Shown in pieces: positions 12,822-21,443 of a DNA stretch of 64,000 bases. The DNA lies in NCBI GenBank assembly GCA_963737905.1, contig CAVTUQ010000031.1:1-64000 (forward strand). The letters run 5' to 3'. The position numbers and the translations under genes were made by a program. Each line of letters starts with the position of its first letter. Position 1 is the first letter of the stretch. The notes under the pieces were generated by a model that saw only the letters and a list, made by a program, of their open reading frames with translations, ran no database searches and had not been told where the DNA came from. Source of the DNA: an uncultured delta proteobacterium. Lineage in GTDB: Bacteria; Desulfobacterota; Binatia; UBA9968.

Positions 12822-14948
12822 CTATGTTAGGAATTTCTCAAGTGTCGCCTTCAATGCGTCAACGGACGATTCGCTATCGAGCGCGTAGCGATGGATGCGA
12901 TGCTTGGCGATGGCTCGGAAATAACGCTCGGGCTGCTGGTCTTGTGAAATGAGCAAAACGTTCCGGCCGAGGGTGTGCGCGATGCCGAGTTCGAGCGCCA
13001 CGTTCGCGTTGAGACCCGTGAGATCGACCACGACATGAGTGGCCCCGCAAATCTCATCCCAAATTGAACGAAGAACATCGGGCGCCAGGACTTGATCGCC
13101 CCGGATATATTCCACACGCTCGGCGCAGGCCTCTTTGACAAGCGCCAACGTCTTGGTCGACCACGCTGGACCGAATGCGGTCACGTGAAAGCAACGTTGG
13201 GCAGCGGGGTCCGGATAGTCGCCGGGCCAGACCGGCCACAAAGCCTGTGGGGCGTCCGCACCGAGAAAGTTCAAGGTGGAGGCAACAAGATGTTTGGCTC
13301 TGACCGGATCTCCCTTTGCTTCGGCGGCGAGTGTGTTTACTGATACGCGTACGTGGTGATCGGCATGATTGCAAAATTGATCATGGATGTACTTGACGGA
13401 AGCTTGGACGGAGCTCCCGGCTCCGCCCCTTTGCAGCCTGTAGAACGCGTGGGTTAGAGCAGTAGACAGGTTGAGAAGATCGGTCTGTTTGTTGCCGAGA
13501 CGAATGGGTTCGATGTCCAGATCGAAGGGCAATTCTTGGTCCCCCGTTGCCACGATGACCACGGCCCGGCCGAGCGTGAGTGCGATCCCCAATTCATAGG
13601 CCACGGCAGCAACCGGGCTGGCTTCTTCCAGAGAAGCGGAACGCTTGTACCCGGTAAAATCAAATACCGCCAGGGCGGATTCGCGCAATTGGTCCCAGCG
13701 GAGAGATGCGGGCTCTTGATGCGGTTGCGGCACGAGCCGTCGTAGCTCCCCGGTCGCACAAACCTGGGCGAGCAGTTCGCCTAAATATGATCCGCCGGAG
13801 TAGAAGACCGCATTAGGATGTTGCGCGACGGTGCGGGATGGCCACACCGGTTGAGCGAGGGTGAGATGGTGACGCAGCGAAAAATTACGGATATTGATTG
13901 CGAGCGGCCGTAAGGTCTCGATTTCGAGTTTTACCGGATCGCTATTCACGGGAAAGCCTGCAAGAGCTTCGCGGCTCTCCCTGAGGTGTCCGAGCAAGGT
14001 ACCTGCCGTCTCGCCTTCTTCGCGGGGTAAGATGCCGCCCGCCATTTCTGTAACAACATAGCGAAAAAGATCCGCGTGCAGTTCGGTAATGACCGCCAGG
14101 TGTGAACCCGGTGAAGGTTTTTCCACAGGTTGTGCTCTGCTGGGATTGAGAAGAACTTCTTGCATGCGACCAACCAAGTCCTGAACCCGGCGTGCTTTGA
14201 TTTGTGTATCGGCGAGGCTGGGAGTGGGTTTCCCGATGAGCTCTTCGAGCTCTGCCATAATCGACGCTAAAAAAGGTTGGCGCTCGGGAGCAATTTGACC
14301 GCTCGCGACTTGACTCTCGTAAAACTGCCGGAGCGCGATAATTTCCTGTTGCGCTTCGGTGTTGTCATCGTCTGTGGGTGTGGCGTCGCTTGAACTCGAC
14401 TCGGGACTGTGACCGCTTTGTTCCGCCCGGAGGAGCATTTCTTCGATGGCGCGGTCGCTCGATATCAGCTCTCGAACCTTCGTCGCGGAGGCGTCGGAAG
14501 AACGCCCGTCCTGGTCCAGTCTTTGATCGGTGAAGTAGGCCGCGCGCAGCCCGCAACGGCTGCAGCCGTGCACCGGGGCGCGATAGCGCTCGCTATATTC
14601 CCAAGGTTCCCAATCGTGTGCCGTGCGAGTTTCGTCGCTCCATGCGCTGCAACGCTGGCAGCGAATACCCTGCGCGCAAGAATCATCCTTCCGGTAGATC
14701 CAAGCACCCCACTGATGCTCGATACGACGCTCGGATTCAGCGCAACGGTGGCAGCTTCGCGACAAATCGCAGCGTTGCTCGGCGATGTAATGCCAATCCA
14801 ACCAACTATGCTCGATCCGTTGGTTTACGGTGCCGCAGCGCTCGCAAGTTTGCACCAAGGCACAGCCGCCGGGAGCTTCCAGGCGCCAATCTCCCTGATG
14901 CAAGCCGAGCAAGCACTTGCCGGTATCGAGCCAATCCTTCAGCGCCAT
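12822..14948 (-). CDS. zinc-binding (C..H..CxxC) repeat protein with two tandem nucleoside-2-deoxyribosyltransferase/TIR-like domains
   Basis: 4 Cys/His/Trp units, most with HxWxxW..C..CxxC; C-terminal VFDFTG...YELGIALTLGRAVV and VVDLTGLNANVALELGIAHTLGRNV. Confidence 0.75.
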   Translation of the reverse strand: MALKDWLDTGKCLLGLHQGDWRLEAPGGCALVQTCERCGTVNQRIEHSWLDWHYIAEQRCDLSRSCHRCAESERRIEHQWGAWIYRKDDSCAQGIRCQRCSAWSDETRTAHDWEPWEYSERYRAPVHGCSRCGLRAAYFTDQRLDQDGRSSDASATKVRELISSDRAIEEMLLRAEQSGHSPESSSSDATPTDDDNTEAQQEIIALRQFYESQVASGQIAPERQPFLASIMAELEELIGKPTPSLADTQIKARRVQDLVGRMQEVLLNPSRAQPVEKPSPGSHLAVITELHADLFRYVVTEMAGGILPREEGETAGTLLGHLRESREALAGFPVNSDPVKLEIETLRPLAINIRNFSLRHHLTLAQPVWPSRTVAQHPNAVFYSGGSYLGELLAQVCATGELRRLVPQPHQEPASLRWDQLRESALAVFDFTGYKRSASLEEASPVAAVAYELGIALTLGRAVVIVATGDQELPFDLDIEPIRLGNKQTDLLNLSTALTHAFYRLQRGGAGSSVQASVKYIHDQFCNHADHHVRVSVNTLAAEAKGDPVRAKHLVASTLNFLGADAPQALWPVWPGDYPDPAAQRCFHVTAFGPAWSTKTLALVKEACAERVEYIRGDQVLAPDVLRSIWDEICGATHVVVDLTGLNANVALELGIAHTLGRNVLLISQDQQPERYFRAIAKHRIHRYALDSESSVDALKATLEKFLT

Positions 14949-14958
14949 ACGCGTGAAC

Positions 14959-16104
14959 TCAGTTGATCCGCTCCCATAGTCGATAACGTCCGTCTCCAGG
15001 CCAAAGCATCGTCGCGCTTTCGATTACATAGTTTCGCGCGAGAGAATTTCCTTGGTCGAAATTGAGGACAAGCGTGTTACCCGATGCGGACCAGTTGCCG
15101 TGTTCGCGTCCCCTCGCAGTACCGTTTGAGTTGCTCCACCATTGGAAACGGCCGTCGGCGTCCAGAACGCAATGGGTGTCGGTCACCATCGTGAATCCGC
15201 CGGAACCTAAGATTTCCGTGCTGCGCCAATGTCCCACGAGCCGTCTGTCCAATTCTTCGGTTGCCGGCCTGGCAGCAGAGACAACGGTTGAGGTTGTCGA
15301 GACCGGTGCGGGGGCTGCTGCTTTGACCGGCGGGCTGAAGACCGCATCGATGCCTTGAGTGCGACAGCGCTCGATCAGTCCGGCAAGCTGGCGAAGGGTA
15401 TCTTTGGTGCTCTCGTCCGGCGCGCGTTGGTCGATTGCGAACTTGAAATATTTCTCGGCCACCGGGTTGAACAACACTTGACTATGCTGGGTCACACGCT
15501 CTCGCACCTTAGCGCTATCTTTCGACTCCATGACGTTCCAGACCGCTCGATCGACCCTTTGGAGCGACACTTGATCCGTCTTGTTGCTTTCCTCCAAATC
15601 AAAGACCATCTCCGCGCAGCGGCGGCAGACGCGCACGCCCGTGCCGTAGAACTGGCTCTTATTCCAAGCGCCCCATTCATGAGTGATGCGCGTCTGTGGC
15701 CCGGTATCTCCACATCGCGAGCAGGTGACGACTTGCGAGCAAACCTGTTCACCATCGTAGTTCCAGGATTCCCAGAGGTGAGCGGTGCCCGCGGCTTTTG
15801 TTTCCGCACAACGCGAGCAGGGGCGAATCAGGGCGCAGGATCCCTCCGATTGATAAACGGGCGTTCCCCAAACGTGCTCGGTTTTGGTTTCCTTCTCGCC
15901 GCACCGGCCGCATTCTCGACCCATCAAGCAAGCATCGGTATTTTGGTATTCCCAAGCTTGCCACGTGTGGACCACCTGTTGGCTCTCAGTCTTGCAGCGC
16001 GAGCAGACACGGGTCTGCTGGCATGATCCTTTTCGTAGGTATCGCCATTCCCCGGCATGAAAGCCGAGCGTGCATTTTCCTCTATCGAAGAGATCCTTGA
16101 GCAT
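14959..16104 (-). CDS. zinc-binding repeat protein with C-terminal lipocalin-like beta domain
   Basis: 5 Cys/His/Trp repeats paralogous to 12822-14948; P/A/T linker; LVGHWR...G.WS.SGNTL. Confidence 0.7.
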   Translation of the reverse strand: MLKDLFDRGKCTLGFHAGEWRYLRKGSCQQTRVCSRCKTESQQVVHTWQAWEYQNTDACLMGRECGRCGEKETKTEHVWGTPVYQSEGSCALIRPCSRCAETKAAGTAHLWESWNYDGEQVCSQVVTCSRCGDTGPQTRITHEWGAWNKSQFYGTGVRVCRRCAEMVFDLEESNKTDQVSLQRVDRAVWNVMESKDSAKVRERVTQHSQVLFNPVAEKYFKFAIDQRAPDESTKDTLRQLAGLIERCRTQGIDAVFSPPVKAAAPAPVSTTSTVVSAARPATEELDRRLVGHWRSTEILGSGGFTMVTDTHCVLDADGRFQWWSNSNGTARGREHGNWSASGNTLVLNFDQGNSLARNYVIESATMLWPGDGRYRLWERIN

Positions 16105-18875: not shown

Positions 18876-21443
18876 GTGAGTGTCCCAATGCAATTGCCTA
18901 TTGAGTCTCCTCTCGCGCCACTGACGAGCTCGGGGAAAGTCAGGCCATTCGGTAGATCTTTTTGCCTCAACTCAGAAAAGTTCTTTCTAAAAGGAGTGAC
19001 GTATGGGCCGTTCGCGCTTTCACGAAACGGCGCTCCGTTTCCCGAAGCTGCGACGATTGAGATCGATTTTGCTTTGATGTCAGAGCTCGGAGTCAACAGT
19101 TTTCGCACCTTTACTCCGGCTCCGAATTGGCTCCTCGATAAGGCCGCCGCTTATGGTCTTAGAGTCATCACCGGAATTCCTTGGGCGCAACATATCTCTT
19201 TTCTTGACTCCTCCCGCACTCGAGCAGAAATCCGTAACACTATTGCTGATAGTGTCCGTGCCAGTAAACAACATCCTGCGGTGTTGGCTCACCTGGTGGG
19301 CAATGAGATTCCTCCTGAGATCGTGCGCTGGTACGGCGCCAAGCGCATTCGCAGATTTCTTCGTGAGTTGGTTGACGTAGCCAAAACGACCGATCCCGAT
19401 GTGCTGGTAAGTTATGCCAATTTTCCTTCGACGGAATATCTTGAGGCCGACTTTACGGACTTCTTGGCCTTCAATGTTTATCTTCATCGAGAAGAGGATT
19501 TTCGGCGCTATCTATTTCACCTCCTCAATTTAGCCGGCGAACGGCCGTTGGTTTTGACGGAGATCGGGATGGATTCCATCCGAGAAGGACTCAAACCTCA
19601 GGCCGAAGCACTGTCTCGGCAACTCGGCGCTAGCTACGAAATGGGTGTTGCGGGGACTGTAATTTTTTCCTGGACCGATGATTGGCACGCCTTCTCGGGC
19701 GCAGAGGGATTTCAAGTTGACGACTGGGCCTTCGGTTTAGTGGAGCGCAGCCGCCGAAAGAAGCCCGCTTTCTGGGCGGTGAAAAATTTCTACGATGGTC
19801 CTCTCCCTCCCGCTCTTCCCCGCTATCCTAAGGTCTCGGTGATTGTATGCGCTTACAACGGCGAGCGAACCATAGACCGCTGTCTCGCCTCATTGGAAAC
19901 CCTCAACTATCCCAACTATGAAGTTGTTGTCGTCAATGACGGCTCGACGGACGGGACGCGGGAAATTGCCGAGCGCTACGCCTATATTCGTCTGATCAAC
20001 CAGGAGAATCAGGGGCTAAGCGCAGCGCGTAACGTCGGACTGCGCGCGGCGCGCGGCGATATCATTGCCTATACCGATTGTGACTGCATGGCCGATCCGG
20101 ATTGGCTGACCCATCTGGTAGCGCGCTTTCTCTCATCGGACTTTGGTGCCGTAGGGGGGCCGAACCTCCCCCCGCCGGACAGTTCATTGGTCGCCAACTG
20201 CGTGGCTGTCTCGCCGGGCGGGCCGACTCATGTGTTGTTGGATGATGAAGTTGCCGAGCACATCCCGGGCTGCAACATGGCTTTTCGGCGGGAAGCGCTG
20301 GAGGCGATCCATGGGTTTGATCCGGTATTTCGGTCCGCCGGAGATGACGTAGATCTCTGTTGGCGACTGCAAAACAAGGGCTACAAGATCGGTTTCAGCG
20401 CGGCTGCGGTCGTATGGCATTTTCGCCGGAACACGGTGCGAGACTATATCAAGCAGCAGCAGGGGTACGGCAAAGCCGAAACTCTCCTATTCTTTAAGCA
20501 CCCCTCTCGTTTTAACGTGCTTGGTCAATCGCGTTGGTTCGGAAGAATTTACGGCGATCTCTCTTCTTTTCTGGCGAGCCGGCAGCCGCGGATTTACACC
20601 GGAGTTTTTGGCAGGGGCCTTTTTCAGACACTATATCAGCCTCCTCCTTCAATAATCTCATGCCTGCCTCTCACGTTGGAGTGGAGTCTGCTCTCTACAC
20701 TACTTCTGGTTTGCGCGTTTGTGTTCGGCGGCGTTTTCTGGGTGGGGCTTGCGCCCTTCTTTCTTACTCTCAGCCGCTGTGTCGCAAGCGCTTTAAAGGC
20801 TCGAATGGCTCCGCCATTTCGCGGCTTGCGAGCGACGCTTCTGGTGGCTCTGTTGGTCTATATTGGACCTCTCATCCGTACACTCGAGCGCTATCGCTGG
20901 CGCATTCGCAGGCATCGAGAAGTGAAGCCGGTCGAATATAATGGGCCCAGGCAAGTCCCGAGGATCTTGTGGCACGAACGCGCCTTTTATCTCTCCTACT
21001 GGAACGAGGAAGGACGGGAAAAGGAGAGTTTGCTTTATTCGGTCATGGACTTTCTCCTGCCGCGCAAATATCTAATTGCCGTGGACCAGGGATGGAGTCA
21101 CTGGGACCTGGAAATTTGCCAAGGTCCGTGGGCCAAAGCACAAATCCGAGCGGCTACGGAAAATCACGGCAGTGCAAAGCGTCTGTTGAGGGTGCGATGT
21201 GCGCTTCGGATGTCGAGGATTTCTTTTACCTGTCTCTGCCTTTATGCTGTGTTGATGGCGGTGGCAGCTTTCCTTTCCATGCCGCAGGTCGCCGCTGCGG
21301 CGTTCGTCACTGGTCTGATTCATGGTAGTGCGATTGCGTACCAAAAATTTCGTCTCGGGCGCGTACTCTACCATGTTGTGGAATCTCTAGCGCACAAGCT
21401 CGATTTCTTGCCGGTGCAAAAATCATCGGAAGAGGCGCAGTGA
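18876..21443 (+). CDS. GH-A clan TIM barrel + GT2 glycosyltransferase fusion with C-terminal TM helices
   Basis: KGVTYGPF, VGNEIP, VLTEIG (GH catalytic pair); VSVIVCAYN, VNDGSTD, TDCD, GDDVDLCWR, QQQGY. Confidence 0.9.
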   Translation: MSVPMQLPIESPLAPLTSSGKVRPFGRSFCLNSEKFFLKGVTYGPFALSRNGAPFPEAATIEIDFALMSELGVNSFRTFTPAPNWLLDKAAAYGLRVITGIPWAQHISFLDSSRTRAEIRNTIADSVRASKQHPAVLAHLVGNEIPPEIVRWYGAKRIRRFLRELVDVAKTTDPDVLVSYANFPSTEYLEADFTDFLAFNVYLHREEDFRRYLFHLLNLAGERPLVLTEIGMDSIREGLKPQAEALSRQLGASYEMGVAGTVIFSWTDDWHAFSGAEGFQVDDWAFGLVERSRRKKPAFWAVKNFYDGPLPPALPRYPKVSVIVCAYNGERTIDRCLASLETLNYPNYEVVVVNDGSTDGTREIAERYAYIRLINQENQGLSAARNVGLRAARGDIIAYTDCDCMADPDWLTHLVARFLSSDFGAVGGPNLPPPDSSLVANCVAVSPGGPTHVLLDDEVAEHIPGCNMAFRREALEAIHGFDPVFRSAGDDVDLCWRLQNKGYKIGFSAAAVVWHFRRNTVRDYIKQQQGYGKAETLLFFKHPSRFNVLGQSRWFGRIYGDLSSFLASRQPRIYTGVFGRGLFQTLYQPPPSIISCLPLTLEWSLLSTLLLVCAFVFGGVFWVGLAPFFLTLSRCVASALKARMAPPFRGLRATLLVALLVYIGPLIRTLERYRWRIRRHREVKPVEYNGPRQVPRILWHERAFYLSYWNEEGREKESLLYSVMDFLLPRKYLIAVDQGWSHWDLEICQGPWAKAQIRAATENHGSAKRLLRVRCALRMSRISFTCLCLYAVLMAVAAFLSMPQVAAAAFVTGLIHGSAIAYQKFRLGRVLYHVVESLAHKLDFLPVQKSSEEAQ

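Follow-up and report, generated by a model that had tools for sequence, protein, structure and literature searches.

A paired-gene module with a predicted zinc-rod adaptor, a lipocalin-like partner and exchangeable effectors: a candidate conflict system from an uncultured Binatia bacterium

Introduction

Why would two adjacent genes encode proteins that begin with the same cysteine- and histidine-rich repeat and end in different domains? Such a pair lies in a 64,000-nucleotide (nt) stretch, called the window here, of contig CAVTUQ010000031.1 (assembly GCA_963737905.1) from an uncultured delta proteobacterium of the Binatia. The source assembly is a 6.7-Mb metagenome-assembled genome (MAG), 87% complete, and the pair are the sole zinc-repeat genes found there. 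An original prediction, made from the letters of the window, proposed that the shared repeat pairs a sensor with a nucleotide-processing effector in an undescribed conflict or signaling system. Follow-up analysis confirmed what had been seen and supported part of the interpretation: interleaved Cys3His (C3H) zinc sites and pairing of the two proteins gained support, but a defense-island context did not. We put a probability of roughly 0.55 on the reading that the pair is a mobile two-gene conflict module, in which a constant sensor with a lipocalin-like barrel is coupled by a zinc-rod adaptor to swappable effectors, here a tandem glycosidase. Such a module would most likely be of the abortive-infection immune type.

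Results

Two adjacent genes share a repeat that fits interleaved zinc sites

The two genes are co-directional, with 10 nt between the stop of gene 1 and the start of gene 2. Their coordinates and those of the two repeat domains are as follows.

14959..16104, minus strand: gene 1 (P0002), constant subunit of 381 amino acids (aa), with zinc rod, helical domain and lipocalin-like barrel; open reading frame (ORF) with 68 homologues, AlphaFold2 (AF2) mean pLDDT confidence score 85.6, position always directly upstream of the effector gene
12822..14948, minus strand: gene 2 (P0001), effector subunit of 708 aa, with zinc rod, helical stalk and tandem NDT/DrHyd-TIR-fold domains; ORF with 95 homologues, AF2 mean pLDDT 73.7
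15595..16104, minus strand: predicted zinc rod of gene 1, residues 1-170, an N-terminal helix followed by beta-hairpin units, five in all and each with a CxxC (15 Cys + 5 His in total); assigned from ligand positions, conservation, pLDDT above 90 with hairpin strands, and the interleaving rule described below; no Pfam or PDB sequence match
14529..14948, minus strand: predicted gene 2 zinc rod, spanning residues 1-140 with 12 Cys and 4 His and made up of four CxxC units; the contact surface is predicted to be the final unit (W113-F139); assigned from ligand positions, conservation and interface residues 113-142

The N-termini are clearly paralogous (56 of 132 residues identical, 42%; E 9e-31), in agreement with the common N-terminus and gene arrangement first described. 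In both proteins the putative ligands start with C-x4-H and continue as C-x5-C-x2-C-x8/9-H units, with the CxxC knuckles spaced 31-32 residues apart. They are C11 H16 | C28 C34 C37 H46 | C59 C65 C68 H77 | C90 C96 C99 H109 | C122 C128 C131 H142 | C160 C163 in gene 1 and C12 H17 | C29 C35 C38 H47 | C60 C66 C69 H78 | C91 C97 C100 H111 | C129 C132 in gene 2. The original counts of 15 Cys with 5 His and 12 Cys with 4 His are therefore correct, provided that only conserved His are counted in gene 2, whose zinc stretch holds three additional, unconserved ones. Among 46 gene 1 homologues and 34 gene 2 homologues, these positions are either invariant or conserved in at least 90%. As had been noted, neither protein has the "extra" Cys in its final unit.

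In the AF2 models every unit is a beta-hairpin with the CxxC at its tip (pLDDT above 90 in gene 1). The first Cys and the His of a hairpin lie at its base, distant from the tip, so a single unit appears unable to form its own zinc site. The ligand pattern instead fits interleaved C3H sites that would form a rod: site 1 would consist of C11, H16 and the first CxxC, and site k+1 of the extra Cys and His of unit k with the CxxC of unit k+1. This scheme was compared across the 115 stored proteins, out of 308, with a parsable zinc domain. A Cys at position -6 precedes every knuckle but the last in 114 of them, a count that represents few independent length variants rather than 115 events because the proteins are mutually related, and the last-unit rule holds alike for rods of 3, 4 or 5 knuckles. 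The His after the knuckle is missing solely at the last unit in 105 of these 114, while the other nine also miss it at one internal unit under the strict His pattern. As judged from these relatives the pattern is far beyond chance, and it supports the earlier proposal that each site borrows from the preceding unit. From it we infer that the rod binds zinc. Every unit would hand on a Cys and a His to the site that follows, so that rod length would be set by the number of units.

The single exception to the -6 rule is probably a 316-aa partner protein from a Binatia MAG (locus L014) that has lost two units; parsing gave three knuckles for its rod, and the branch between it and a five-unit sister is of zero length. 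This lipocalin-type partner (L014:2456-3406), with two zinc units fewer and an "extra" Cys left unpaired, stems from either a recent deletion or an error in assembly.

No Pfam model matches the rod (best CEP104_ZnF, E 0.35), a rod profile search against PDB sequences returned no match at E <= 10, and among Atlas clusters the closest (0.93) is an unnamed family of 108 aa. The structure-match lists for both AF2 models are filled by the C-terminal domains, and no novelty of the rod fold is claimed. A zinc-domain search for longer proteins yielded 25 of 53 candidates, all from the 381-aa family; its word index missed even gene 2, making it uninformative on other architectures. Among 401 genomes of a phylum sample, the rod profile was found in two, the window's own genome and one (G321) that itself contributed to the profile. 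The latter encodes a stand-alone 105-aa protein (L007:1492-1809, minus strand) of three rod units, with the C-x4-H start and a last unit without the extra Cys, next to a trypsin-like protease ORF.

The partner gene is constant and the effector is exchanged

Relatives of gene 2 were found at 25 genome-contig loci. In all eight genome loci with a zinc-rod effector and visible upstream DNA (L012-L015, L018, L021, L028 and L030), the gene immediately upstream, in the same orientation, is of the lipocalin type, which bears out the expectation that the two genes co-occur in other genomes. These loci are labeled Binatia, "delta proteobacterium", Chloroflexota and Verrucomicrobiae, and the intergenic gap in other loci of the pair is 0-120 nt. 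A metagenome search with the gene 1 family identified a further set of 41 loci, 36 of them with the lipocalin part and 32 of those 36 with at least 150 nt of downstream DNA. A second zinc-rod gene begins within 400 nt downstream in 26 of the 32, although these counts overstate independence because several loci are near-duplicates from the same studies. The downstream gene is of the tandem-NDT type in 10 loci, or 11 including L070. On the other hand, five sister loci (L058, L060, L062, L068 and L072) carry a TPR-CHAT protease at this position, with Pfam CHAT (PF12770) E values of 2e-30 to 2e-39 for the L058, L060 and L072 ORFs; the L062 gene is seemingly truncated or frame-shifted, and the L068 assignment comes from tblastn alone. 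Two short contigs hold a CHAT-type middle region only. The CHAT protease thus replaces the gene 2 effector in sister loci.

A tree of the rod domains places the copies from partners and those from effectors in different clades, whose branching is largely parallel in the Binatia-like group; the deep forks are not resolved. One Verrucomicrobiae MAG has the pair bracketed by two identical IS110-family transposase genes (L028:1056-1985 and L028:7699-8628) in a composite-transposon-like arrangement, and a second copy of the pair on another contig (L030:6851-10835). In a long-read MAG (L021:7662-10983) both genes are broken into several frames, likely by sequencing frameshifts, and they are not necessarily pseudogenes.

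A complex model joins the distal units of the two rods

A single complex prediction was made from custom alignments, combining gene 2 residues 1-365 with gene 1 residues 1-260. The model supports binding (ipSAE 0.70; best of three controls 0.00). In calibration, 58 of 80 solved complexes reached the 0.70 mark, as against 2 of 110 mismatched pairs; these counts are only roughly valid here because of the custom alignments. The complex runs had at least 58% of contacts in common, with a partner pLDDT of at least 80. The predicted interface places the last zinc unit of gene 2 (113-142) against the last units of gene 1 (119-166) and two segments (181-185 and 222-229) of the following domain:

15331..15573, minus strand: gene 1 helical domain, residues 178-258, including LIERCRTQGIDAVF; helices at 181-256 with pLDDT above 90, and the two segments just named in the predicted interface

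On gene 2 the interface coincides with the family-invariant residues W113, W116, Y118, E120, R123, A124 and P125. The model supports rod-to-rod binding of the two proteins and, along with the conserved gene pairing, the proposal that the shared repeat mediates their pairing.

Gene 2 carries tandem NDT/DrHyd-like domains and gene 1 a lipocalin-like barrel

Beyond the rods the two proteins differ. In gene 2 a disordered linker (residues 147-195 of the AF2 model) leads into a stalk and two alpha/beta domains, and gene 1 ends in a barrel.

13863..14366, minus strand: gene 2 helical stalk, residues 195-362, first part of a widespread C-terminal cassette; six long helices, R347 and R359 nearly invariant, most distant relatives match from about residue 200
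13419..13820, minus strand: gene 2 NDT/DrHyd-like domain 1, residues 377-510 (FDFTG...YELGIA), a partly degenerate copy
13242..13406, minus strand: gene 2 helical insert between the NDT-like domains, residues 515-569; AF2 helices, D547 invariant in 55 relatives
12825..13214, minus strand: gene 2 NDT/DrHyd-like domain 2, residues 579-708 (CFHV..F ... VDLTGLNANVALELG), predicted catalytic or nucleotide-binding domain
14962..15249, minus strand: gene 1 lipocalin-like beta-barrel, residues 286-381, candidate sensor of a ligand or trigger

All the elements originally pointed out are present: two motifs (FDFTG...YELGIALTLGR and VDLTGLNANVALELGIAHTLGR), a helix containing LIERCRTQGIDAVF and a beta domain at the C-terminus. 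By hhalign, domains 1 and 2 of gene 2 are mutual homologues (probability 97.3%, E 2e-11). Both have a three-layer alpha/beta fold that is TIR-like and superposable on nucleoside 2-deoxyribosyltransferase (NDT), DNPH1 and MilB, and both carry the conserved ELG-motif Glu of the NDT/DrHyd superfamily (E452 and E653). The best matches by structure and by sequence include MilB and DNPH1/Rcl. In 106 diverse relatives, domain 2 retains E653 in 105, N649 in 104, D642 in 102, N647 in 100 and T644 in 99. The domain 1 Glu, E452, is kept in 82 and is lost in proteins from Acidoferrales, Pyrinomonadaceae and Verrucomicrobiae, among others. We therefore read domain 2 as a probable active or ligand-binding site and domain 1 as its partly degenerate partner. 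NDT enzymes work as dimers, which makes an intramolecular pseudo-dimer of the two domains a reasonable inference. Membership in DUF4062/Swarozyc was dropped for want of a Pfam match. A whole-model Foldseek search with the 708-aa protein gave meaningless matches only (TM ~0.15; CODH, GFAT), a whole-family PDB profile search for gene 2 gave spurious ones, and the Atlas look-up for the cassette returned only leads below 0.9 (CAP12/Pycsar TIR, NDT).

Gene 1 residues 286-381 score above the gathering cut-off of PF13648 (Lipocalin_4) and are modeled as an eight-stranded barrel. Fold and Pfam membership are shared with bacterial lipocalin-like proteins such as BT_0846, YedD and BACOVA_00364. By their descriptions, the barrel's structural matches are lipoproteins or periplasmic domains, whereas the gene 1 domain has no hydrophobic segment and lies behind a zinc domain, so it is presumably cytoplasmic. 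Neither protein of the pair has a hydrophobic segment long enough to span a membrane: the maximum 19-residue Kyte-Doolittle mean is 0.84 in gene 1 and 1.77 in gene 2, the latter peak lying on an element buried in the core of NDT-like domain 1.

The tandem cassette is widespread and the rod is rare

An exhaustive HMMER search with gene 2 against 50%-identity cluster representatives gave 2329 matches at E <= 1e-3 and 292 at E <= 1e-30. The majority cover only residues ~200-708, which suggests that the helical stalk and tandem domains form a conserved cassette. Other Pfam domains among 55 cassette members were DUF1232 (5), AAA (2), TIR_2 (2), and TIR, FHA, DZR and nSTAND3 (1 each); where they could be placed they are N-terminal to the cassette, with TIR in P0080 and P0091 and DUF1232 in L022. 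The tandem cassette is thus widespread and joined to many different N-termini. The zinc rod, by contrast, is rare. A sample of 400 further genomes from this phylum yielded no full-length gene 2, and no gene 2 relative was found on viral contigs. In the Gemmatimonadota locus (L022:6011-9520), a gene for a protein with a DrHyd-like N-terminus and a MAP3K_TRAF_bd/TPR-S region lies directly upstream of the DUF1232 and tandem-NDT cassette gene, which is apparently split by a frameshift.

Discussion

Comparison with known systems

The logic of a sensor, an adaptor and an effector is already known; the parts and their combination are new as far as the literature was searched. Keyword searches found no description of a zinc-rod adaptor, a cytoplasmic lipocalin partner, a tandem DrHyd cassette or an NDT/CHAT swap, although Burroughs et al. 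2015, which classifies DrHyd architectures, and the supplementary tables of the papers cited here may list related ones. DrHyd/NDT and TIR domains are documented in three reports as NADase or nucleotide-depleting effectors and as signal enzymes (10.64898/2025.12.03.692087; 10.64898/2026.05.01.722283; PMC9503650). The closest precedent for the effector is ThsI of type VIII Thoeris, described in its preprint as an NDT-superfamily "CMP hydrolase" with TPR (Yirmiya et al. 2025, bioRxiv 10.64898/2025.12.03.692087). As in ThsI, an NDT/DrHyd-superfamily domain would serve as effector of a small anti-phage operon, and domain 2 of gene 2 is homologous to the N-terminal domain of the L022 protein of ThsI-like architecture (hhalign 96%, E 4.6e-9). 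Unlike that arrangement, the enzyme domain here is tandem, TPR-S is lacking and a zinc rod would provide coupling to a lipocalin-like protein; the likeness is one of architecture. The pair itself is not a Thoeris locus: there is no TIR-domain ThsB gene, a TIR domain occurring in neither pair gene nor any flanking ORF, and neither protein has a Pfam signal-sensing domain such as SLOG, Macro or TPR-S.

The rod most resembles the effector-associated domains (EADs) of NTPase-centered conflict systems (Kaur, Burroughs, Iyer, Aravind 2020, PMC7159879). EADs share with the rod a small non-enzymatic domain that opens two adjacent genes, one of them an effector, as well as interchangeable effectors and a proposed homotypic coupling. 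In contrast, the ten EADs described are alpha-helical or alpha+beta (PMC7159879), whereas the adaptor here would be an all-beta multi-zinc rod. The NTPase core of EAD systems (MoxR-vWA, GAP1/DO-GTPase or STAND) was not found among 93 neighboring ORFs of 15 loci; nSTAND3 occurs in cis in one distant cassette relative. The effectors also have their own relatives. Compared with DNPH1/Rcl, MilB and the nucleoside 2-deoxyribosyltransferases (PF05014), gene 2 has marginal sequence similarity, tandem domains in one chain rather than a homodimer, and a D-x-T-G-x-N-x-N insert ahead of the Glu that is specific to its family. Compared with TIR and TIR-like NADases (SARM1, ThsB; DUF4062/Swarozyc, bioRxiv 10.64898/2026.05.01.722283), its motifs are NDT-like and not TIR-like, with no Pfam TIR, TIR_2 or DUF4062 match at E <= 1. 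The sister loci carry the TPR and CHAT domains of conflict-system proteases (PF12770) at the gene 2 position, mostly with the same zinc-rod N-terminus, but the window's own effector is of the tandem NDT type.

Proposed mechanism and its weak points

In the mechanism we favor, gene 1 would present, on a rod of five interleaved Cys3His sites, a helical domain and a cytoplasmic lipocalin-like barrel that may sense a small molecule or other trigger. Gene 2 would carry its two NDT/DrHyd-TIR-fold domains on a four-site rod and helical stalk. Domain 2, with its near-invariant Glu in a DNPH1-like ELG motif, is predicted to cleave a nucleotide N-glycosidic bond (of NAD+ or a nucleoside or deoxynucleoside monophosphate, NMP/dNMP), and domain 1 probably completes the intramolecular pseudo-dimer. 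The distal units of the paralogous rods would join the two proteins, so the rod may be viewed as a coupling adaptor comparable to the EADs of conflict systems already described. Where sister loci have a TPR-CHAT protease, the constant gene would be coupled to that instead. This mechanism is favored because the pair has the marks of conflict systems: a constant gene with a variable effector slot (for a putative nucleotide glycosidase or a caspase-like protease), a duplicated non-enzymatic domain, a patchy cross-phylum distribution and insertion sequences. The fullest version of the proposal is more tentative and has, in our estimate, somewhat less than even odds. It holds that the pair is an undescribed two-gene immune system with exchangeable suicide effectors, a TPR-CHAT protease in some loci and a pseudo-dimeric tandem DrHyd/NDT nucleotide glycosidase in others. 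The interleaved rod, as an adaptor of a new kind, would link whichever effector is present to a lipocalin-like sensor in the cytoplasm.

Several results weigh against reading the pair as a conflict module. Its neighbors are mostly metabolic, the commonest Pfam domains among the 93 ORFs being Amidohydro_2 (8) and NMT1 (6). PADLOC matches among the neighbors at E <= 1e-8 were few, with at most three ORFs per model and mostly to generic helicase/ATPase models, so there is no defense-island signal, and the defense-island context that the prediction had led one to expect was not seen at any of the 15 loci. The module itself (nine proteins from six loci) matches no PADLOC-DB v2.0.0 model save for weak TIR-effector matches on the NDT domain, that of gene 2 scoring 13.8 bits (E 0.0047). 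Downstream effectors at L069 (NDT) and L072 (CHAT) have no detectable zinc rod, none was detected at four more loci with 286-2843 nt of downstream DNA, and many of the loci share a study or a lineage with others and do not count as independent cases. As for the enzyme, gene 2 matches PF05014 (Nuc_deoxyrib_tr) over residues 419-472 at 24.9 bits (E 2.3e-5), below the curated gathering cut-off of 28.8. Among PDB sequences it resembles DNPH1/Rcl only weakly: the GYELG of Rcl/DNPH1 lines up with the ELG Glu in each of the two domains, but at E 0.5-1.7. Gene 2 relatives pass the cut-off (34.3 bits in L023 and 31.2 bits in L024; 34 of 55 match at E <= 1e-3), which is why we treat gene 2 as a superfamily-level relative and not as a PF05014 member. 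The predicted NDT/TIR-like identity thus stands for the fold and the ELG Glu but not for Pfam membership, as the TIR models PF01582 and PF13676 also gave no match in gene 2 at E <= 1. Since the pair is autonomous and mobile yet not visibly within defense islands, the defense reading is held at moderate confidence.

Alternative explanations

One alternative is that the tandem cassette is a non-catalytic, regulatory sensor of a nucleotide (for example of the ADP-ribose type), with the variable N-termini as outputs or adaptors and the rod relaying the signal to the lipocalin-bearing protein. We consider this unlikely, though it has points in its favor: the constant cassette bears many N-termini, including enzymatic TIR and AAA; 24 of 106 relatives lack the domain 1 Glu; signals could be supplied by TIR_2 ORFs, of which the genome has at least 10 elsewhere; and inactive TIR-DrHyd-SLOG members have been proposed as sensors (Iyer et al. 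2022, PMC9503650). However, the near-complete retention of the domain 2 Glu (105 of 106), with D642, T644, N647 and N649 also kept, is what an active site would show, a CHAT protease at the same gene position marks an effector slot, and the lipocalin protein has no output domain recognizable by Pfam. A slightly less probable explanation is a toxin-antitoxin-like pair, in which gene 1 would be a stoichiometric inhibitor of a toxic glycosidase or protease, released upon gene 1 degradation or titration with no specific ligand being sensed. The smaller partner gene comes first, at a gap of 10 nt here and 0-120 nt elsewhere, and strict co-inheritance, the predicted binding (0.70 against a best control of 0.00) and a mobile, patchy context would all suit such a pair. 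But the predicted contacts lie on the rods and the gene 1 helical domain, far from the catalytic domains (the effector model comprised residues 1-365), and the conserved lipocalin-like pocket (H292 W293 R294 D309 T310 H311 W338 W377) exceeds the needs of a simple plug.

We regard as improbable, and as the least probable of the three, that the genes are a housekeeping or secondary-metabolism enzyme pair, for instance in nucleotide salvage or MilB/DNPH1-like CMP/dNMP hydrolysis, with gene 1 as a lipocalin-like carrier. The places of MilB and DNPH1/Rcl in the match lists fit this idea, as do the metabolic neighbors in Binatia, where NMT1 and amidohydrolase genes recur. The surroundings are wholly different elsewhere, with tectonin and ABC-2 genes at the Chloroflexota locus and IS110, DEAD helicase, DUF885 and ABC-F genes at the Verrucomicrobiae loci, and no biosynthetic cluster is present. 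Moreover, a CHAT protease substitutes for the enzyme in sister loci, the effector is absent from the 400 other sampled phylum genomes, and an adaptor duplicated over two genes would be needless for a metabolic enzyme.

Implications

If the conflict-module reading is right, a modular zinc rod that varies in length by whole units would be a new adaptor principle for prokaryotic conflict systems, whose existing examples are helical Death-like or EAD domains, and the rod would also be a new zinc-binding architecture. The NDT/DrHyd-TIR enzyme class would be deployed as a tandem pseudo-dimer, in a cassette (292 representatives at E <= 1e-30, with many partners) that appears unstudied, and a cytoplasmic lipocalin-like domain would act as an immune sensor. 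The sister loci would amount to a natural experiment in effector swapping on one sensor, glycosidase versus protease. The host lineages are poorly studied ones of soil and freshwater (Binatia, Chloroflexota and Verrucomicrobiae), where defense catalogues based on model organisms are thin.

Other features of the genome and window

A promoter and terminator scan of the gene pair gave signal at or below shuffled expectation, and GC content is uniform over the gene-pair region. The window genome (G000) has 11 Pfam TIR_2 matches, 10 of them above the cut-off, all on other contigs and none near the pair; they fall on contigs C2, C12, C14, C19, C20, C21, C40 and C42, with two adjacent on C40 (e.g. 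C40:16844-17671). A few kilobases from the pair, an 855-aa ORF (window 18876-21443, plus strand) lies within a stretch of lower GC content (0.48-0.53).

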